Source: a virus
Taxonomy: Duplodnaviria > Caudoviricetes
Virus record (IMG/VR): IMGVR_UViG_3300027851_000027
Coordinates: 1-63,688 of that record
Reading direction: 5' to 3' (one strand)
Length of the DNA stretch: 63,688 bases
This document shows, piece after piece, positions 22,022 to 27,676 of the stretch. The notes beneath the pieces were generated by a model. The model had not been told where the DNA came from. It ran no database searches and saw only the letters and a list, made by a program, of their open reading frames with translations. The translations under genes and the position numbers were made by a program. Numbering within the stretch: the first letter of the stretch is position 1; the number at the start of each line of letters is the position of its first letter.

Positions 22022-22473
22022 GCGGGCCACCTCGGGAGATTCGCAGGCCACTGGCCAGATTCTTCGATCTGCGCGCGGGTTTCGGCGGCCCACTTCCTGC
22101 CCATTCGGATGTGCTCAGCGCGGTCGATGAACAAGGCGTAGCGGTCGAAACGTGAGTGGCATCCCAGCGATCCGGGTTCATCGGCGCAAAGTGGCATGGC
22201 GCGTCTGTCATCCAGCTTCAAGGCCTTGCCCTTGCCTTCGTTTTCGTGGGCGTGCTGACTGCGGCCTTCGCGCCGGCAGTTCGCGCAAGGCAGCGCGGCC
22301 ACCAGGCGGCGGTAGGGTTCGCTGCGCACCGGGTTTTCTTTCTCGATGGCCTCATGCACTGCGGTGACAGGTCCCATGCTGGCGTTGCGGCGCAGATGCA
22401 AAGGGATCGGTGTGTGGATGGTCCGCTTGCGCTCGATCTGCGGGCGCTTGAAACTGGAACGTTTTAGCGTCAT
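22018..22473 (-). CDS. DUF968-like putative nuclease
   Basis: LPCANC...QHAH...DD..AMPLC...CH..FD. Confidence 0.7.
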   Translation of the reverse strand: MTLKRSSFKRPQIERKRTIHTPIPLHLRRNASMGPVTAVHEAIEKENPVRSEPYRRLVAALPCANCRREGRSQHAHENEGKGKALKLDDRRAMPLCADEPGSLGCHSRFDRYALFIDRAEHIRMGRKWAAETRAQIEESGQWPANLPRWPA

Positions 22474-22574
22474 GCGGCCTCCCTCATGGCATTGACCGCC
22501 TCGACAGCCTCAATGCGCCTACCGATCCAAGCGGCCACGGGTACAGCCCAGCTATTTCCGAGCGCCTTGTAGCG
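22470..22574 (-). pseudogene. Orphaned original 3' end (motif X) of the C5-MTase
   Basis: Encodes RYKALGNSWAVPVAAWIGRRI...EAA*, 18/21 aa identical to the MTase segment at 23239..23301; retains ATGA coupling to the next gene. Confidence 0.85.
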
Positions 22575-22610
22575 TATAGAATTTAGGCAATTCATCTGAA
22601 AGGGTTTTGT

Positions 22611-23261
22611 ATGGTTCTTTGTTCGATTGAAGGCTGTGGTCGCAAGCACGCAGCTCACGGTTTCTGCTTGATGCACTACAAGCGCGTTCAGAAGCACGGG
22701 ACGCCCGAATACCGATGGGGCGGCAAGGAAGTTGGTCGGCAATGCCTTCACTGCGATAGGCCCGTGACGGCTCGCGAACTTTGCGTTCGGCATTACCAGA
22801 TGTGGCATCGACATGGAGATGCGCTCTTCGCGGACAGCAAGAAGGTTGATGGCATGGCTGCTGGCGAGCACATGCGGCGCGGATACAAGATGGTGACGCC
22901 TTCCGCTACGGCGCTGAAAGCTGTAAGCGCCAGCCTTGCGACGGTCGAGAAGACGCACAAGGCGCACGCCGCCAACTTTGAGGCAAAGGGGCTGCGAGAT
23001 GGAAGCAGCAGGAGCCGCCGACAATGGGAGCATCGCAAGATCGCCGAGGCCAAGTCGGGGCAGATCGTTCACCATATCGACGGCGACCCGTTGAACAATG
23101 CAAGGGAGAACTTGCATGTGTTCAACTCCCCAGCGGAGCACGCGCGTGCTCACCGTTCGTTGGAAAAAGCCGCGTATGGCTTTCTGCGTTCGGGGTTGCT
23201 TGTGTTTGACGCTGAGAGTGGATGCTATCTACCAGTGCAATCCTCTCGCCAATCCACCTAG
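22611..23261 (+). CDS. HNH homing-type endonuclease with two N-terminal Cys/His zinc repeats
   Basis: EHR...VHHIDGDPLNNARENL...EHARAH; antisense to its operon; gaaaggg RBS. Confidence 0.88.
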   Translation: MVLCSIEGCGRKHAAHGFCLMHYKRVQKHGTPEYRWGGKEVGRQCLHCDRPVTARELCVRHYQMWHRHGDALFADSKKVDGMAAGEHMRRGYKMVTPSATALKAVSASLATVEKTHKAHAANFEAKGLRDGSSRSRRQWEHRKIAEAKSGQIVHHIDGDPLNNARENLHVFNSPAEHARAHRSLEKAAYGFLRSGLLVFDAESGCYLPVQSSRQST

Positions 23262-24654
23262 CTACTGGCACGGCCCAACTGTTACCCAAACTTTTATACC
23301 TTGGCCCATCCGGGCACTGGTCTGCTGGCTTCTTTCTCCATGGGATTTGTGTGTGGCCGGGAGAAAATCCTTGGAGTTTTTCGCATTCCTCGGGCGTAAG
23401 GCGGCGCACTTGCATCCCGGCTTGCGGTTGTACGGCGAATGGCGATTTCTCAAAAGCTCGCAAGCAATCCGTCCGGTCTTCACTGATGCCCATGCTGCTG
23501 GCATCGTTGCCGCTCTTGTGCATGTTGAATGCGACGGCTGTAGGGTTTACAGCACACAGTGATGGTCTCAACTCTTCCGAGCTGGCGCACTGCGTAGCAC
23601 TCATGCGACCAGGGAACGCAATCGCAGGCGCATGCGCCCCAGCGGCCAGCGGGTGGCAAGGATCGCCCGCCTTCGGGTTGCTGTAGTTCGCTTTGCTGGT
23701 GATCTGGGTGGTGTCGAAACAGACCGCCTGCACCTCTGCCCGTGCTTCCAGCGTGTACGCATGGTCGGCCTGCACGCCCACTCCATCCGGTCCACTGTTT
23801 GGGTTGGTGCGCAGTGCGCCAGCCTGGATAGCGAACGAAACTGGCACCAGTGGCGTTCCGCGCCCCGTGCCGTCCTCACTGGCGTCAAAGCCCTCGCCGC
23901 GCAGGCTGTGCGCAACATACGGAGCTTCGTGGTTGCAGTTCAGCGTCGGAGCCATGTCGGCACCGATTTCGGCACCGGCCTGACCCGTGGCTACGCAGAT
24001 AGTTTTATCAATCAGATGGCCGGCTCTTGCGTGATCGACATCGCTACCGCCTTGAGTGCTTCTGAGAGTGCCGGCGGTAGATCCTTTCCGCGCTTGTCGG
24101 CTCGGCGCAGGATGCCCTTGCAGGCTGTGGCGCTCAAAAAGAACCGCTGCGGCACTGCGCCAGTCTCCAAGACATCCGACAACGAACACACGGCGGCGGC
24201 GCTGGGCCACTCCAAAGTACTGAGCGTCCAGAACCCGGTAGGCGAACCCATACCCGAGTTGGCCCAGCATCCCGAGGAAGGTTCCAAAATCCCTTCCTCC
24301 GTTGCTGGACAGGACGCCGGGGACGTTCTCCCAAACCAGCCACTTGGGCCGATACTTTGCAGCAATGGCACCGTAGGTAAGCATGAGGTTGCCACGCGGG
24401 TCATCCAGTCCCTTTCGGAGTCCTGCGACGCTGAATGATTGGCAGGGGGTTCCTCCGCAAAGAAGGTCAATTGCATGGTCGGGCCAGTCCTTGAATTTGG
24501 TCATGTCGCCGTGGTTCGGCACATCGGGGTAGTGGTGGGCCAGCACGGCGCTGGGGAAGGGTTCGATTTCGCTGAACGCCACAGGCTTCCACCCGAGCGG
24601 CTTCCATGCGGAACTCGCGGCCTCGATCCCTGAGCAGACGGATAGGAATCTCAT
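23122..24654 (-). CDS. C5-cytosine DNA methyltransferase (alpha chain) with long multi-unit variable region
   Basis: Motifs I (SVCSGIEA), IV (GGTPCQSFS), VI (ENV), VIII (QRRRRVF), RRLTPEECEKLQGF and X (LGNSWAV). Confidence 0.93.
   Translation of the reverse strand: MRFLSVCSGIEAASSAWKPLGWKPVAFSEIEPFPSAVLAHHYPDVPNHGDMTKFKDWPDHAIDLLCGGTPCQSFSVAGLRKGLDDPRGNLMLTYGAIAAKYRPKWLVWENVPGVLSSNGGRDFGTFLGMLGQLGYGFAYRVLDAQYFGVAQRRRRVFVVGCLGDWRSAAAVLFERHSLQGHPAPSRQARKGSTAGTLRSTQGGSDVDHARAGHLIDKTICVATGQAGAEIGADMAPTLNCNHEAPYVAHSLRGEGFDASEDGTGRGTPLVPVSFAIQAGALRTNPNSGPDGVGVQADHAYTLEARAEVQAVCFDTTQITSKANYSNPKAGDPCHPLAAGAHAPAIAFPGRMSATQCASSEELRPSLCAVNPTAVAFNMHKSGNDASSMGISEDRTDCLRAFEKSPFAVQPQAGMQVRRLTPEECEKLQGFSPGHTQIPWRKKPADQCPDGPRYKSLGNSWAVPVARWIGERIALVDSIHSQRQTQATPNAESHTRLFPTNGEHARAPLGS
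24012..24476 (-). CDS. Nested alternative-frame ORF resembling the M.EcoHK31I beta polypeptide
   Basis: SSGCWANSGM...WTLSTLEWPS....CSLSDVLE.....FFLS......ILRRA..RG..LP; AAGGA 11 nt upstream of ATG. Confidence 0.7.
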   Translation of the reverse strand: MQLTFFAEEPPANHSASQDSERDWMTRVATSCLPTVPLLQSIGPSGWFGRTSPASCPATEEGILEPSSGCWANSGMGSPTGFWTLSTLEWPSAAAVCSLSDVLETGAVPQRFFLSATACKGILRRADKRGKDLPPALSEALKAVAMSITQEPAI

Positions 24655-25139
24655 GCGGCCACCTCTTCCCGCTTCGGCGCGCGGCGCAAGTCGATCAGCT
24701 TCCCGGTGCTCGGGTCGATGGCCTTTTCAGGGATGTCGTGCTCCATCGACACCCCCCAAAAATAGATCCACTCGATCAGGTCTGCCATATCGCGCCCGCT
24801 CATTTCAGAGGTCTTGAGGAACACGATGTCGATGCCCTTTCCATCCAGGGCCGGCAGGTACTCGATGGCCTCTCCTTTGGCGCGCGACCATGCGGACACC
24901 GTGAGCCTCTTCCATTCATCGATCGATCGGTATTCGCCGGCCCATGGCACGTTCTTTGACAGCCATCCCAGCATTGCGTGAAGGCGCGCGCTGTGTTCTG
25001 CGCTGCGCTTGGCCGGGCGCACCACCAGCTCCAGCTTGTGGCCTGCGATGTTCATCGCCTTGCACCACTCTTTCACCGGGCCAGCAAGAACCTTGTGGCT
25101 CTCGACCCAGTTCGGCGTCAGGATGAAGGTCTTGTTCAT
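24651..25139 (-). CDS. ninB: NinB/Orf-family recombination protein
   Basis: KRS..HSARLHAML...EWK...TSEMS...MADLIEWI. Confidence 0.8.
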   Translation of the reverse strand: MNKTFILTPNWVESHKVLAGPVKEWCKAMNIAGHKLELVVRPAKRSAEHSARLHAMLGWLSKNVPWAGEYRSIDEWKRLTVSAWSRAKGEAIEYLPALDGKGIDIVFLKTSEMSGRDMADLIEWIYFWGVSMEHDIPEKAIDPSTGKLIDLRRAPKREEVAA

Positions 25140-27676
25140 GCGGCCTCGCTCAGTTCTTCGGGTTCACAGAGGTCAAAAAGAGTCGGCATCGAGAAATCGC
25201 GTTCAGCCGCCTGCAGGTAGTGCACCTGATCCTTGAAGTAGTCGGCGTTCAGCTCAGACCCTGCAGCGCGTCGACCCTTCTTGATCGCGCGCACGCCCAC
25301 CGTGCCAAGTCCGTGAAACGGGTCATAGACCACCTCGCCGGCCATGCTGTAGCGCTCGATCAGGCGGTCCACGATGTCGAACTGCAGGGGGCACACATGC
25401 TTCTCGACCGCGCGGTTCGCCTGCTCCCCATTGAGCGTGCGCATGCGGTTGATGTCGTGCCACACGTCCGGGTGATGCGACCCCGGCGCCAGGCTCATGA
25501 AGGTGGACGGAAGTGCGTTGCGATCCTGCAGTTGCTCACCAATGCTGACGTGCTTCTCGTAGTCGTAGACGTTGCGCAAGCTGTCCTCTGTGAAGAACTT
25601 GGCCAGCTTCGCAGGACCCATCTGCGCCATCTCTTCGGCGGTCATCAGGCGGTTCCCGTTGGAGCGCCAGAAGGCATGCGCATCAACTTGCCAGCGCGCC
25701 AGGCTGTATTCGCTCTTGTCCTTGCGGATCGGAGTGTCGGCGTAGCCGCGCGAGCGGTCGCTCTGTGGCTTGTGGAAGATCAGCACGTACTCTGGAGAGC
25801 CGACACCCATCTTGGAACCGTCCTTGCACATTTCGGTGTAGCCCAGGCGGTAGGTCTGGTTGTTCTCGCGCACCACGTCCGTGTTGACGGTGATCATCCC
25901 CATGTAGTCGAAGCCGTGCTTGATGCCGTGGAACAGTGCCTCAGCATGGAACGGGCTCACGGTCGGAATGCCGGCGCCGGTCACGTTGCCGAAGTTGATC
26001 CGGTCCTTGACGTGGCAGGCGTAGATGCGGCCAGGCTTCAAGATGCGCAGGAGTTGCGGTGTCAGGAAGTCCATCTGAGCCCAGAAGTGCGGGTTGCCTT
26101 CTGTGTGGCCGAAATCGTTGTAGCTCGGGCTGTACTCGTAATGGTTGGCAAACGGGATCGACGTGACGATCAGGTCCACCGAGTTCTCTCCACGGTGCGC
26201 AGCCTCGGCAACGCAGTCGTTGTGCGCCACGTCGAAGCGCTCGCCCTTCACTGCTGTGCGCGTGCAGCCGATGGTGCGTGCCAGCGTGTCCTGCATGGCC
26301 AGGTGACTCAGGCCATAGGTGCGGATGATTTCGGCCATCTTGGCCTGCATCTCGTTGTGCTGGTCCCACTTCTTTTGCAGCGTCGCCAACACCTCTCGCT
26401 CGCTCTCGGTGTGCACGATGTCGATGCGAACGGCGTGCTCTTGCCCGAAGCGTTGAACCCGGTGCAAGGCCTGGATGAAGTCATTGAACTTGAACCCGAT
26501 GCCGGCGAATATTTCGCGGTGGCAATGGCGCTGGAAGTTGCAGCCACTGCCGGCGATGATCGGCTTCGTGGACAAGATGCGGTGCTTGCCATCGCTGAAG
26601 TCCACGATGCGCTGTTCGCGTTCGTCCAGATCCTGCGTTCCCCACACGCTCAGAGCTTCCGGGATGGCTTGTTGGATTGAATGGCGCTCGTCTTCTAGGT
26701 CGTGCCAGACGATGAAGTGATCTTCCGGCGCTTCGGCGATCAGCTCACGCACCTTCTCGACCCGGGCCGGCATGCTCTGGCGCTTCTCGGTTGCCGCGGC
26801 GCTCAATCCCATGGCCACGTCAGGTATCAGCAGGCCCTGGCCGTTCTTTTCCTCGCCGGCCGCGTCGTAGTCGCTGGGCACTTCGTGATACCGCACGTCC
26901 AGATCGGGCAGGGCGTACCCCTCGTCGCTGTGGCCAAGGTCGCTCGGGCGCTGGATGAAGACCGCCCAACTCGCAACCCACATCCAGAATTCCTGTTCCT
27001 TGTGCGGGTACAGCGTGAGGTTGCCAGCCTGTGAGCTGTCCCGCTGGAAAAAGCGCGTCAGGGCCTGGCCGGTGTCCATCACGCCCAGATATCCCGCGTA
27101 GTGAATCAGCTCCTTGAAGCGGTTCGGGCTTGGCGTGGCCGTGGCCACGAACTTGAATTCGACAGGCGCAAATGCCGGCAGGAACTCCTGATAGGTCTTG
27201 CTCCCGTAGCTGCGCAGCACGCTCGCCTCGTCCAGGCTGGTCGCACGGGCCTTGGACACGTCGAGCTTGCCGTCGCGGATGCTCTCGTAGTTCGTCATGT
27301 AGACGGTGCGCTCGTCGTCAATCTCGGCGTCGGAGCGGATGAACTTCAGGTCCATCGCGAAGTCGCCAGCAAAGCGCTTCACCACCTCCTGCTTGAACTC
27401 CTGGCGCACGCCAAGCGGCATGCAGATCACGCGCAGGCCTGGCCGATGGATGCCGATCAGGCGCATCAGCTCCAACTGAGTAGCGGTCTTGTGCAGGCCG
27501 AAGCTGGCGAAGATCGCGCGGTTGCCACCCTTCACGGCCCACTTCACGATGTCGCGTGTGTGCGGCTTCAGCTCCGGGTTGATCTGGTCGAGTTCAACGT
27601 CGAACCCATCGAAGCTGGCCAGCTTGATTTTGTTCCTCAGGAACTGTTCGTAGTCGCTTAAAATTTGTGCAGTCAT
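25136..27676 (-). CDS. SNF2-like helicase fused to N4C/N6A DNA methyltransferase
   Basis: FGLHKT, LDEAS, TATP and QALHRVQRFGQ helicase motifs; TSIPF and DPFHGLGT MTase motifs (beta order). Confidence 0.9.
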   Translation of the reverse strand: MTAQILSDYEQFLRNKIKLASFDGFDVELDQINPELKPHTRDIVKWAVKGGNRAIFASFGLHKTATQLELMRLIGIHRPGLRVICMPLGVRQEFKQEVVKRFAGDFAMDLKFIRSDAEIDDERTVYMTNYESIRDGKLDVSKARATSLDEASVLRSYGSKTYQEFLPAFAPVEFKFVATATPSPNRFKELIHYAGYLGVMDTGQALTRFFQRDSSQAGNLTLYPHKEQEFWMWVASWAVFIQRPSDLGHSDEGYALPDLDVRYHEVPSDYDAAGEEKNGQGLLIPDVAMGLSAAATEKRQSMPARVEKVRELIAEAPEDHFIVWHDLEDERHSIQQAIPEALSVWGTQDLDEREQRIVDFSDGKHRILSTKPIIAGSGCNFQRHCHREIFAGIGFKFNDFIQALHRVQRFGQEHAVRIDIVHTESEREVLATLQKKWDQHNEMQAKMAEIIRTYGLSHLAMQDTLARTIGCTRTAVKGERFDVAHNDCVAEAAHRGENSVDLIVTSIPFANHYEYSPSYNDFGHTEGNPHFWAQMDFLTPQLLRILKPGRIYACHVKDRINFGNVTGAGIPTVSPFHAEALFHGIKHGFDYMGMITVNTDVVRENNQTYRLGYTEMCKDGSKMGVGSPEYVLIFHKPQSDRSRGYADTPIRKDKSEYSLARWQVDAHAFWRSNGNRLMTAEEMAQMGPAKLAKFFTEDSLRNVYDYEKHVSIGEQLQDRNALPSTFMSLAPGSHHPDVWHDINRMRTLNGEQANRAVEKHVCPLQFDIVDRLIERYSMAGEVVYDPFHGLGTVGVRAIKKGRRAAGSELNADYFKDQVHYLQAAERDFSMPTLFDLCEPEELSEAA

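Follow-up and report, generated by a model that had tools for sequence, protein, structure and literature searches.

The window analyzed here, the 63,688 nucleotides of IMG/VR virus record IMGVR_UViG_3300027851_000027, carries a gene for a C5 cytosine DNA methyltransferase (alpha) in which a second long open reading frame (beta) runs on the same strand. The locus raises two questions: whether the nested frame is a gene at all and, if it is, whether its product works as a subunit of the enzyme that it overlaps. A first-pass annotation, made from the sequence alone, had leaned toward a yes on both by analogy with the two-chain enzyme M.EcoHK31I, while calling the role of beta uncertain.

A second open reading frame inside a phage methyltransferase gene

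The features that bear on these questions are as follows:

23122–24654, minus strand: C5 cytosine DNA methyltransferase gene (alpha), 510 aa, from the ORF list, PF00145, TIGR00675, and phrog_116
24501–24503, minus strand: TGA stop of the +1 frame immediately ahead of beta, forced by main-frame codons
24488–24492, minus strand: AAGGA resembling a Shine-Dalgarno site, lying 11 nt upstream from the ATG of beta and formed by main-frame Lys-Asp codons
24012–24476, minus strand: nested gene (beta), ATG start, 154 aa, +1 frame, wholly inside 23122–24654
24439–24447, minus strand: motif IV catalytic Pro-Cys-Gln, alpha residues 70–72, within the overlap
24036–24182, minus strand: most conserved part of beta, residues 99–147 (SLSDVLE ... 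GILRRADKRGKDLP ... L..AL), from invariant and near-invariant columns of alignment A1
23365–23409, minus strand: motif IX of alpha, residues 416–430, VRRLTPEECEKLQGF, main frame, outside the overlap
23263–23307, minus strand: motif X of alpha, residues 450–464, GPRYKSLGNSWAVPV

The alpha ORF matches PF00145 (E = 1.1e-50), TIGR00675 (E = 1.4e-48), and phrog_116 (E = 9.9e-90). Its motifs follow the canonical order, I (SGIE), IV (PCQ), VI (ENV), VIII (QRRRR), IX, and X, with a long variable region between motifs VIII and IX, and their positions coincide with the invariant columns of alignment A2. The first-pass annotation had conceded that the main frame already contains an RRLTP.E...LQGF motif, and indeed both RRLTPEECEKLQGF and the GNSWAVPV of motif X are present. 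Alpha has every canonical motif, IX and X included, and leaves no obvious gap for beta to fill.

With its start at base 179 of the alpha gene, the nested ORF is in the +1 frame; it overlaps enzyme codons 60–214, beginning shortly ahead of the PCQ of motif IV and ending ≈60 codons beyond the QRRRR of motif VIII. Both the ORF list and a three-frame printout contain the 154-codon frame across motifs IV–VIII that had been described, together with the quoted string W.NSGM...TLEWPS...CSLSDVLE, and the AAGGA said to precede its ATG lies 11 nt upstream. Most homologs have AAGGAG (Lys-Glu codons) instead, 7 nt upstream of the nested ATG. The TGA that closes the +1 frame ahead of beta is forced by conserved main-frame Asp-Met-Thr codons. 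The predicted protein has a pI of 4.9, with acidic N-terminal and middle parts and a basic C-terminal helical hairpin. An antisense ORF of 268 aa also occupies this place.

The nested frame is kept open and conserved

The main-frame N-domain alone served as the query for homologous loci, of which the best 80 of 599 were kept. Three (L057, L077, and L079) were dropped because the frame ran off the locus, and the remaining 77, taken together with the window, make up a set of 78 genes with a GC content of 0.45–0.64. As a null model, we used exact synonymous-codon resampling, which keeps the amino acids of the enzyme and its codon usage. In the window gene alone, P(open) is 0.02 by this resampling; together with the antisense ORF, this makes the length of the nested ORF by itself weak evidence in a 60% GC gene. 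The first-pass annotation had named interruption by stops in close homologs as evidence against its reading; instead, the +1 frame stays open for at least 153 codons in 77 of the 78 genes, and the +2 frame is typically open for 30. Resampling leads us to expect 4.28 stops per gene in the +1 frame, as against 0.013 seen (one stop in 78 genes, in L016, where alpha is intact), with a median per-gene P(open) of 0.0067. The +2 control fits the null, with 6.59 stops per gene expected and 7.32 seen.

The start region is maintained as well. In 73 of the 78 genes, base 154 (0-based) is where the +1 frame becomes open; the remaining five (L016, L030, L073, L080, and L081) have the opening elsewhere. Among the 71 unique genes, the first ATG falls at base 160–190 in 55, a Shine-Dalgarno-like string lies no more than 20 nt upstream of the ATG in 63, and AAGGAG or AAGGA precedes it in 36.

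Site variation, computed on the same 71 unique genes, bears out the suppression of synonymous change in the overlap that the first-pass annotation had proposed looking for. At third codon positions, the entropy amounts to 1.34 bits ahead of the overlap and to 1.48 over motifs IX–X, compared with 0.77, 0.64, and 0.47 bits within the overlap. At four-fold sites of conserved residues, the entropy is 0.467 bits inside the overlap (n = 39) and 1.706 outside (n = 24; Mann–Whitney p = 1.3e-10). Over codons 160–214, the periodicity switches to that of the +1 frame (0.86/0.52/0.47), and over codons 160–205, pairwise identity is 0.717 in the +1 frame, 0.589 in the enzyme frame, and 0.515 in the +2 frame. 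The enzyme frame is the dominant one across motifs IV–VIII, with the nested frame taking over beyond motif VIII.

Three sequence marks of an overlapping gene are present: a frame open beyond main-frame constraint, synonymous suppression, and periodicity in the second frame. These sequence comparisons show purifying selection on the predicted beta amino-acid sequence and indicate that the nested ORF is a real overlapping gene. A chance ORF in GC-rich DNA is ruled out by the comparison of homologs, through the open frame, the synonymous suppression, and the recurrence of the arrangement in distant relatives.

Beta accompanies the enzyme in phages and bacterial genomes

Two database searches returned 2420 and 3713 relatives of beta. 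We opened seven of the 140 phage records with a tblastn match, and in every one of them, the match falls within a C5 methyltransferase gene, in its +1 frame. The frame is held open in low-GC phages too, in Streptococcus phage MM1 for 161 codons (8.3 stops expected, P = 2.2e-5) and in a Brochothrix phage for 156 (7.2 expected, P = 4.2e-5). It spans 163 open codons in P1 dmt, 159 in Omega gp127, 145 in CobraSix, 152 in zjk6, and 160 in CRP-821. Gene callers forbid long same-strand overlaps. The suspicion that they would overlook the nested gene proved largely right, as among the seven opened records only that of MM1 annotates it.

In prophage loci of bacterial genomes from many phyla, beta lies +1 inside the enzyme N-domain in 80 of 80 cases (the best 80 of 500). 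No stop interrupts it in 77 of these 80, a count biased toward intact copies since the loci were retrieved by beta motifs. The 78 viral genes and 80 genome loci are also mutually related and so do not amount to independent trials. The three genome loci with a stop in beta (L090, L108, and L132) have an intact alpha; these copies and L016 may mean that beta is dispensable, or they may be sequencing errors. No stand-alone beta outside a methyltransferase gene was found in the 80 genome loci (best 80 of 500) or the seven phage records, and beta accompanies the enzyme in clades as far apart as the CSGIEAAS-type and the FAGIGG-type. Across the loci compared, sequence placement shows the putative protein always at the same place within the enzyme family.

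Beta is predicted to bind the methyltransferase

Searches by family and fold gave beta no assignment. It matched no family in Pfam or NCBIfam; against the PDB, the single sequence returned only a chance ribosomal-protein row (E = 0.071) and the profile returned no hits, and a Foldseek search of the monomer model against the PDB found no fold match (best E = 5.6). Neighbors in the ESM Atlas, short clusters labeled as DNA cytosine methyltransferase family, were set aside as uninformative since a wrong frame over a real gene can yield the same.

The monomer model of beta is mediocre (mean pLDDT 68.2, pTM 0.36) and confident in its helices only. Residues 99–147 form two such helices (pLDDT 84–97, pI 9.1), and residues 70–104 are poorly modeled. 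In the predicted complex with alpha, residues 70–104 make the best-defined contacts, with alpha residues 136–150 and 165–186 as their predicted partners. Co-folding of the two chains, as the first-pass annotation had suggested, predicts binding: the score, which expresses model confidence and is not a measurement, is 0.71 (runs of 0.71, 0.60, and 0.83), and the best of three controls scored 0.00. Of 80 solved complexes, 58 attain the mark used for this score, as do two of 110 mismatched pairs; these rates apply only roughly to alpha and beta, whose alignments were self-made. The runs share at least 53% of contacts, with a partner pLDDT of at least 61.

Motif IX of alpha is among the regions predicted to touch beta, and the basic two-helix hairpin is mostly free of the predicted interface. 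This hairpin would probably touch DNA or stabilize the small domain that reads the target; the DNA contact is suggested only by its charge and its near absence from the predicted interface. A resemblance to motif IX within beta (RFFLSATACKGIL compared with RRLTPEECEKLQ of alpha) was considered and dropped: an hhalign comparison of the beta and alpha profiles shows no motif IX likeness, its best match (E = 0.73) lying elsewhere.

A proposed dual-coding gene and its alternatives

We favor, with reasonable rather than full confidence, the view that this is a dual-coding methyltransferase gene whose 154-aa product is a partner subunit of the enzyme. From one mRNA, ribosomes would make the 510-aa methyltransferase and, from an internal Shine-Dalgarno sequence and ATG ≈178 nt downstream in the +1 frame, the 154-aa protein, which we infer to be the beta subunit. 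Its acidic N-terminal and middle parts, poorly folded alone, may wrap onto the catalytic domain, where contacts are predicted with the strand region flanked by motifs VI and VIII, with the residues that follow motif VIII, and with motifs IX/X. The most conserved part, the basic two-helix hairpin, would be left mostly free, probably for DNA or the small domain. Nesting would fix both co-expression and co-inheritance with the enzyme. The arrangement would thereby work like the alpha and beta chains of M.EcoHK31I, without replacing a missing motif IX. The earlier claim of a two-chain enzyme fares unevenly: the conserved nested gene, the predicted binding, and the homolog called a beta subunit in MM1 speak for it, and the presence of a motif IX in alpha itself speaks against it.

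The strongest competitor, which we consider unlikely but by some distance the most serious, holds that beta is translated without being an enzyme subunit. It would be an early-operon regulator, an anti-defense factor, or a DNA-binding protein that sits where it does only because overprinting began there, phage genomes being compact. Such a protein would account for an enzyme that is complete on its own, for the lack of any family or fold match tying beta to methyltransferases, and for a most conserved part that is a basic helical hairpin mostly free in the complex model. It fits poorly with the confinement of beta to C5 methyltransferase genes in every genome locus (80 of 80, the best 80 of 500) and phage record (7 of 7), with the joint occurrence of beta and enzyme from CSGIEAAS-type to FAGIGG-type clades, and with a complex prediction that passes while its controls stay at 0.00.

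Far less probable is programmed ribosomal frameshifting, in which an N-terminal catalytic fragment would be fused to the C terminus of beta with no independent initiation. Two database chimeras, P0247 and P0236, do follow the main frame past motif IV before continuing in the beta frame. Against this, the +1 frame has its own conserved Shine-Dalgarno-like site and an ATG right after the closing TGA, P0236 has several frame changes of the kind typical of assembly error, and ≈4 of the 78 IMG/VR genes are frameshifted elsewhere (L037, L047, L049, and L081), so such chimeras are expected as errors.

Least probable of all, and strongly disfavored, is an untranslated frame left open as a by-product of codon choice, nucleotide constraint (RNA structure or avoidance of the phage's own target sites), or enzyme conservation: the N-terminal third of beta does overlap the highly conserved motifs IV–VI, so that its conservation is partly forced, and the window gene alone gives a P(open) of only 0.02, but resampling expects 4.3 stops where 0.013 are seen while the +2 frame conforms to the null, low-GC phages keep 156–161 codons open, the +1 periodicity and a +1 protein better conserved than the enzyme emerge after motif VIII, and the Shine-Dalgarno sequence and ATG are conserved.

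The subunit reading can be extended to a class, a proposal that we make tentatively and hold to be more doubtful than the reading of this locus. Orphan phage and prophage C5 methyltransferases, P1 Dmt included, might as a class be two-protein enzymes in which a ≈150-residue +1 subunit encoded across motifs IV–VIII docks on the catalytic domain, shows its basic hairpin to DNA, and is required for the enzyme's full activity, its processivity, or its choice of target. If so, few long genes that overlap another on the same strand would be as widespread in bacterial viruses, and beta would go unseen by standard annotation in thousands of genes.

Long overlaps between genes on one strand are, to our knowledge, considered uncommon in DNA phages and bacteria. 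Here, one such overlap is conserved across thousands of methyltransferase genes, in many bacterial phyla and in the model phages P1, Omega, and MM1. Should the product be a subunit, beta was present unnoticed in the published studies of these enzymes, because cloning the alpha gene brings beta along, and engineering, codon optimization, or recoding of alpha genes would silently destroy it. The locus also offers a tractable test case for two proteins sharing 460 nt, in which the overlap shows where each frame yields, with P1 dmt in E. coli as a candidate system.

Comparison with known two-chain methyltransferases

According to PMC2836561 and PMC3404938, M.EcoHK31I from E. coli HK31 is an alpha/beta C5 methyltransferase for YGGCCR in which beta supplies the motif IX that alpha lacks; the former source reports that methylation is abolished once the beta starts are silently removed. 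The window gene resembles that system in having a small second polypeptide wholly inside a methyltransferase gene, on the same strand in another frame, with its own internal starts, and in the two chains' association, here a predicted one. It differs in that its alpha has its own motifs IX and X and its beta has no detectable motif IX. The analogy holds for gene layout and fails for one defining feature, that of motif IX. The name M.EcoHK31I is absent from the 120 matches listed for each of two database searches. A literature search, with subscription journals and supplements outside its range, found no nested-ORF family of this kind beyond EcoHK31I, and methyltransferases are not mentioned in PMC8788219.

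M.AquI, as PMC3404938 describes it, is a C5 methyltransferase whose two subunits are divided within the variable region. Omega shows a related arrangement, with gp127, which carries motifs I–VIII and the nested beta, together with gp128, and in L047 and database proteins such as P0132 and P0231, an in-frame fusion joins beta to the variable region and motifs IX–X. We do not accept these fusions as a genuine architecture: the L047 junction is a G10 run, and because of this run and the frameshifts in ≈4 of the 78 IMG/VR genes, error or slippage fits the fused forms as well as design does. Unlike M.AquI as described there, the window enzyme is one chain, and the extra protein is overprinted and not a piece of the canonical fold.

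An annotated counterpart exists in Streptococcus phage MM1 (DQ113772.1), where orf13 is labeled C5 methyltransferase alpha subunit and orf14, of family phrog_16143, beta subunit, the latter label being an annotation. As in the window, orf14 lies +1 inside orf13 at the same place, across motifs IV–VIII. Window beta matches MM1 by tblastn with 34% identity over residues 3–128 (126 residues, E = 1e-6) and matches phrog_16143 with E = 5.7e-8. The MM1 enzyme differs from that of the window in belonging to a distant clade, with a FAGIGG-type motif I and a GC content of 0.41, and its beta ends right after SLSDILE...YFLS, without the basic GILRRA.KRGK hairpin.

The bifunctional C5 and Dam methyltransferase of coliphage P1, Dmt (NC_005856.1, dmt), differs from the window enzyme in its C-terminal Dam domain and an N-domain insertion. 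Its C5 domain has the same +1 ORF, which is unannotated in the record and is 57% identical to window beta over residues 86–145.

A second reading frame within the phage methyltransferase gene

The virus record, complete at 63,688 bp, encodes a 510-aa C5 cytosine methyltransferase in which motifs I, IV (PCQ), VI (ENV) and VIII (QRRRR), a long variable region, and motifs IX and X (GNSWAVPV) can be read. Within its gene, in another frame of the same strand, we find the ATG-started ORF that the first-pass annotation had described as a nested beta subunit. Because it begins at base 179 of the enzyme gene, this ORF lies in the +1 frame, and it overlaps enzyme codons 60-214. The AAGGA reported upstream of its ATG is likewise present, 11 nt away, and a TGA shuts the +1 frame just before it.

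Features of the methyltransferase locus
22473-22583, minus strand: orphan methyltransferase motif X fragment (IRYKALGNSWAVPVAAWIGRRIE...), downstream of the HNH gene
22611-23261, plus strand: HNH endonuclease gene (HNH_3, E 1.6e-6), neighboring the enzyme gene on the opposite strand
23122-24654, minus strand: C5 cytosine methyltransferase, 510 aa (PF00145, E 1.1e-50; TIGR00675)
23632-24438, plus strand: antisense ORF, 268 aa, across the methyltransferase gene
24012-24476, minus strand: nested ORF, 154 codons, ATG start, +1 frame of the enzyme gene
24651-25139: NinB gene, neighboring the enzyme gene
25136-27676, minus strand: 846-aa protein with an N6_N4 methylase domain (PF01555, E 2.7e-13, residues 500-815)

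The 846-aa protein adjoins NinB, and its methylase domain is C-terminal, the N-terminal half having no assigned domain; given this N6_N4 DNA methylase domain, the phage has a second DNA methyltransferase, located two genes from the C5 enzyme. On the other side, the HNH gene overlaps the 3' end of the enzyme gene in antisense. The motif X fragment shares 57% identity with enzyme residues 447-483 over 37 aa (E 4e-14), has no similarity to the enzyme gene at the DNA level, and looks like a spare 3' end left by HNH insertion or allele replacement.

The +1 frame is kept open beyond chance expectation

A long alternative ORF in a 60% GC gene is unremarkable by itself, and GC-rich coding DNA typically contains long antisense ORFs. 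Relatives were gathered for comparison because a 268-aa antisense ORF occupies the same place and because, in the window gene alone, synonymous resampling gave P(open) = 0.02 for the +1 frame. We selected them by the main-frame N-domain only, taking the best 80 of 599 (identity 69-91%). L057, L077, and L079, in which the enzyme frame extends past the end of the locus, were left out; the remaining 77 plus the window make 78 genes, with GC from 0.446 to 0.639.

In 77 of the 78 the +1 frame stays open over 153 codons or more, from about base 154 to base 613-697, so that the stops in close homologs that would speak against a nested gene are confined to a single case, locus L016. By an exact calculation that holds the amino acids and codon usage of each enzyme fixed, 4.28 +1 stops are expected per gene and 0.013 are observed, against 6.59 expected and 7.32 observed for the +2 control; over motif VIII the +2 frame typically runs 30 codons without a stop. 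Per gene, P(open) has a median of 0.0067, and the genes, being mutually related, amount to fewer than 78 independent trials. Their synonymous sites are near saturation outside the overlap.

Start signals recur as well. The first +1 ATG falls at base 160-190 in 55 of 71 unique genes, and most of the others have TTG or GTG there and ATG at base 250-253. A Shine-Dalgarno-like string lies within 20 nt upstream of the first +1 ATG in 63 of the 71 (a raw count), most commonly AAGGAG, 7 nt upstream and formed by enzyme Lys-Glu codons.

Selection acts on both frames

Suppressed synonymous variation in the overlap, proposed earlier as a check, is found in the codon alignment of the 71 unique genes. At four-fold degenerate codons whose residue is conserved at 90% or more, the third position has an entropy of 0.467 bits within the overlap (n=39) versus 1.706 outside (n=24; Mann-Whitney p 1.3e-10). 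Over codons 160-214 the entropy periodicity switches to the +1 frame.

Entropy (bits) at codon positions 1 / 2 / 3, 71 unique genes
Enzyme codons 1-51 (before the overlap): 0.52 / 0.41 / 1.34
Enzyme codons 60-110: 0.39 / 0.24 / 0.77
Enzyme codons 110-160: 0.33 / 0.20 / 0.64
Enzyme codons 160-214: 0.86 / 0.52 / 0.47
Motifs IX-X: 0.76 / 0.55 / 1.48

The enzyme prevails across the catalytic motifs (identity 0.84-0.89 versus 0.63-0.69 in motifs IV-VIII), and the nested protein prevails after motif VIII: averaged over gene pairs, the +1 protein reaches an identity of 0.717 in codons 160-205, compared with 0.589 in the enzyme and 0.515 in +2. Constraint is therefore shared out between the two proteins.

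The nested ORF is widespread in phages and bacteria

Among 2480 candidates of 84-270 aa, 2420 are relatives of the nested protein at E <= 1e-3; 3713 cluster representatives match it, 123 of them at E <= 1e-30. Of 140 phage records with a tblastn match, we opened seven, and in all seven the match lies +1 inside a C5 methyltransferase gene. The enzymes of Streptococcus phage MM1 and the Brochothrix phage carry a motif I of the FAGIGG type, so the nested ORF spans very distant enzyme clades.

Open +1 codons in the seven phage records
P1 dmt (coliphage): 163
Omega gp127 (Mycobacterium phage): 159
CobraSix: 145
zjk6: 152
Roseobacter phage CRP-821: 160
Streptococcus phage MM1: 161; gene GC 0.41; stops expected 8.3; P(open) 2.2e-5
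Brochothrix phage: 156; gene GC 0.42; stops expected 7.2; P(open) 4.2e-5

Bacterial genomes were scanned by two beta motifs, and the best 80 of 500 loci come from Beta-, Alpha- and Gammaproteobacteria, Acidobacteriota, Actinomycetota, Planctomycetota, Verrucomicrobiota, and others. In this motif-retrieved set, which is biased to intact copies, the match lies +1 inside the enzyme N-domain in 80 of 80, and 77 have no stop within it, the exceptions being L090, L108, and L132 with one each. No stand-alone beta was found among these 80 loci and the seven phage records. Taken together, we regard the nested ORF as very probably a genuine, ancient, and widespread overlapping gene.

Several relatives depart from the usual layout. 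The Omega enzyme is annotated as adjacent genes, gp127 (motifs I-VIII) and gp128, with the 159-codon nested ORF within gp127 (L086). In the IMG/VR locus L047 a G10 run occupies bases 624-633 of the methyltransferase gene, exactly where the frames part: the enzyme frame ends at 218 aa and the nested frame continues for 436 codons, taking in the variable region and motifs IX/X. Removing one G would restore the usual layout, and the run may reflect a sequencing error or act as a slippage switch. In L037, L049, and L081 the enzyme frame is broken in the variable region, motifs IX/X lie in another frame, and the nested ORF is intact. Eight of the 150 best cluster representatives (P0132, P0163, P0187, P0189, P0204, P0216, P0230, and P0231) lack motifs I-VIII and have the nested protein fused in frame to the variable region and motifs IX/X. 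For P0132 and P0231 the dcm C-terminal match was verified; P0236 and P0247 are chimeras in the opposite order. The fusions are either real M.AquI-like split enzymes or frameshift artefacts.

The nested protein and its predicted binding to the enzyme

Neither Pfam nor NCBIfam yielded a family for the nested protein; among PHROG families it matches phrog_16143, which carries the label 'DNA methyltransferase' (E 5.7e-8). No PDB relative was found by sequence, nor any fold match for its model. In an 82-row alignment, the acidic N-terminal and middle part (pI 4.3) varies, and conservation is strong in the basic C-terminus (pI 9.1), which reads SLSDILE ... YFLS..AC.GILRRAEKRGK.LP..L..AL. The AlphaFold2 monomer (mean pLDDT 68.2, pTM 0.36) has confident helices at 18-30, 35-42, 116-129, and 135-147 and is poor over 70-104, a pattern that would be expected of a chain folding on a partner.

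Co-folding of the two chains, another of the checks proposed, used this alignment and one of 55 rows for the enzyme. The prediction supports binding without demonstrating it: the score is 0.71 (runs 0.71, 0.60, and 0.83) versus 0.00 for the best of three controls, with contact agreement between runs of at least 53% and partner pLDDT of at least 61. The score mark is reached by 58 of 80 solved complexes versus 2 of 110 mismatched pairs, counts that hold only roughly here because we used custom alignments. The best-defined predicted contacts join beta 73-76 and 87-90 to enzyme strand 138-143; the interface also includes enzyme 75-77, 112-134, the stretch following motif VIII (165-186), motif IX (413-427), and motif X with the last helix (449-482), and from the basic hairpin only residues 119 and 139-144. 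From these interface residues, the acidic part would wrap around the catalytic domain close to its hinge with the small domain, and the conserved basic hairpin might stay free for DNA or the target-reading domain. The best-supported function for the product, and a fairly probable one, is that of a partner subunit of the enzyme.

EWPSAAAV in the nested protein (residues 89-96) resembles DWRSAAAV in the enzyme (164-171). The strings lie at 24186-24212 and 24138-24164 (minus strand), 48 nt apart in different frames, and are the top, insignificant hhalign match of the beta and alpha profiles (E 0.73); they reflect either coincidence or the remnant of an old duplication.

Comparison with known systems

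The nearest annotated relative is MM1 orf14, 'C5 methyltransferase beta subunit', nested +1 in orf13; its Streptococcus relatives are sometimes called 'methyl transferase' in NCBI records. In the literature searchable outside subscription journals and supplements, no account was found of how widely the family occurs or of selection on the nested gene. In M.EcoHK31I, the published case of such nesting, the beta frame lies entirely inside the alpha gene; alpha has motifs I-VIII, X, and the target-recognition domain, beta has motif IX, and methylation was abolished when the beta starts were silently removed (PMC2836561, PMC3404938). The gene layout is the same here, as the first-pass annotation had proposed, but the division of labor differs. 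The phage alpha has its own motif IX, reading VRRLTPEECEKLQGF (a caveat raised at the outset and borne out), and hhalign detects none in beta; the defining division of labor of M.EcoHK31I is therefore absent. The nested gene is a variant of the EcoHK31I kind rather than a demonstrated member of it.
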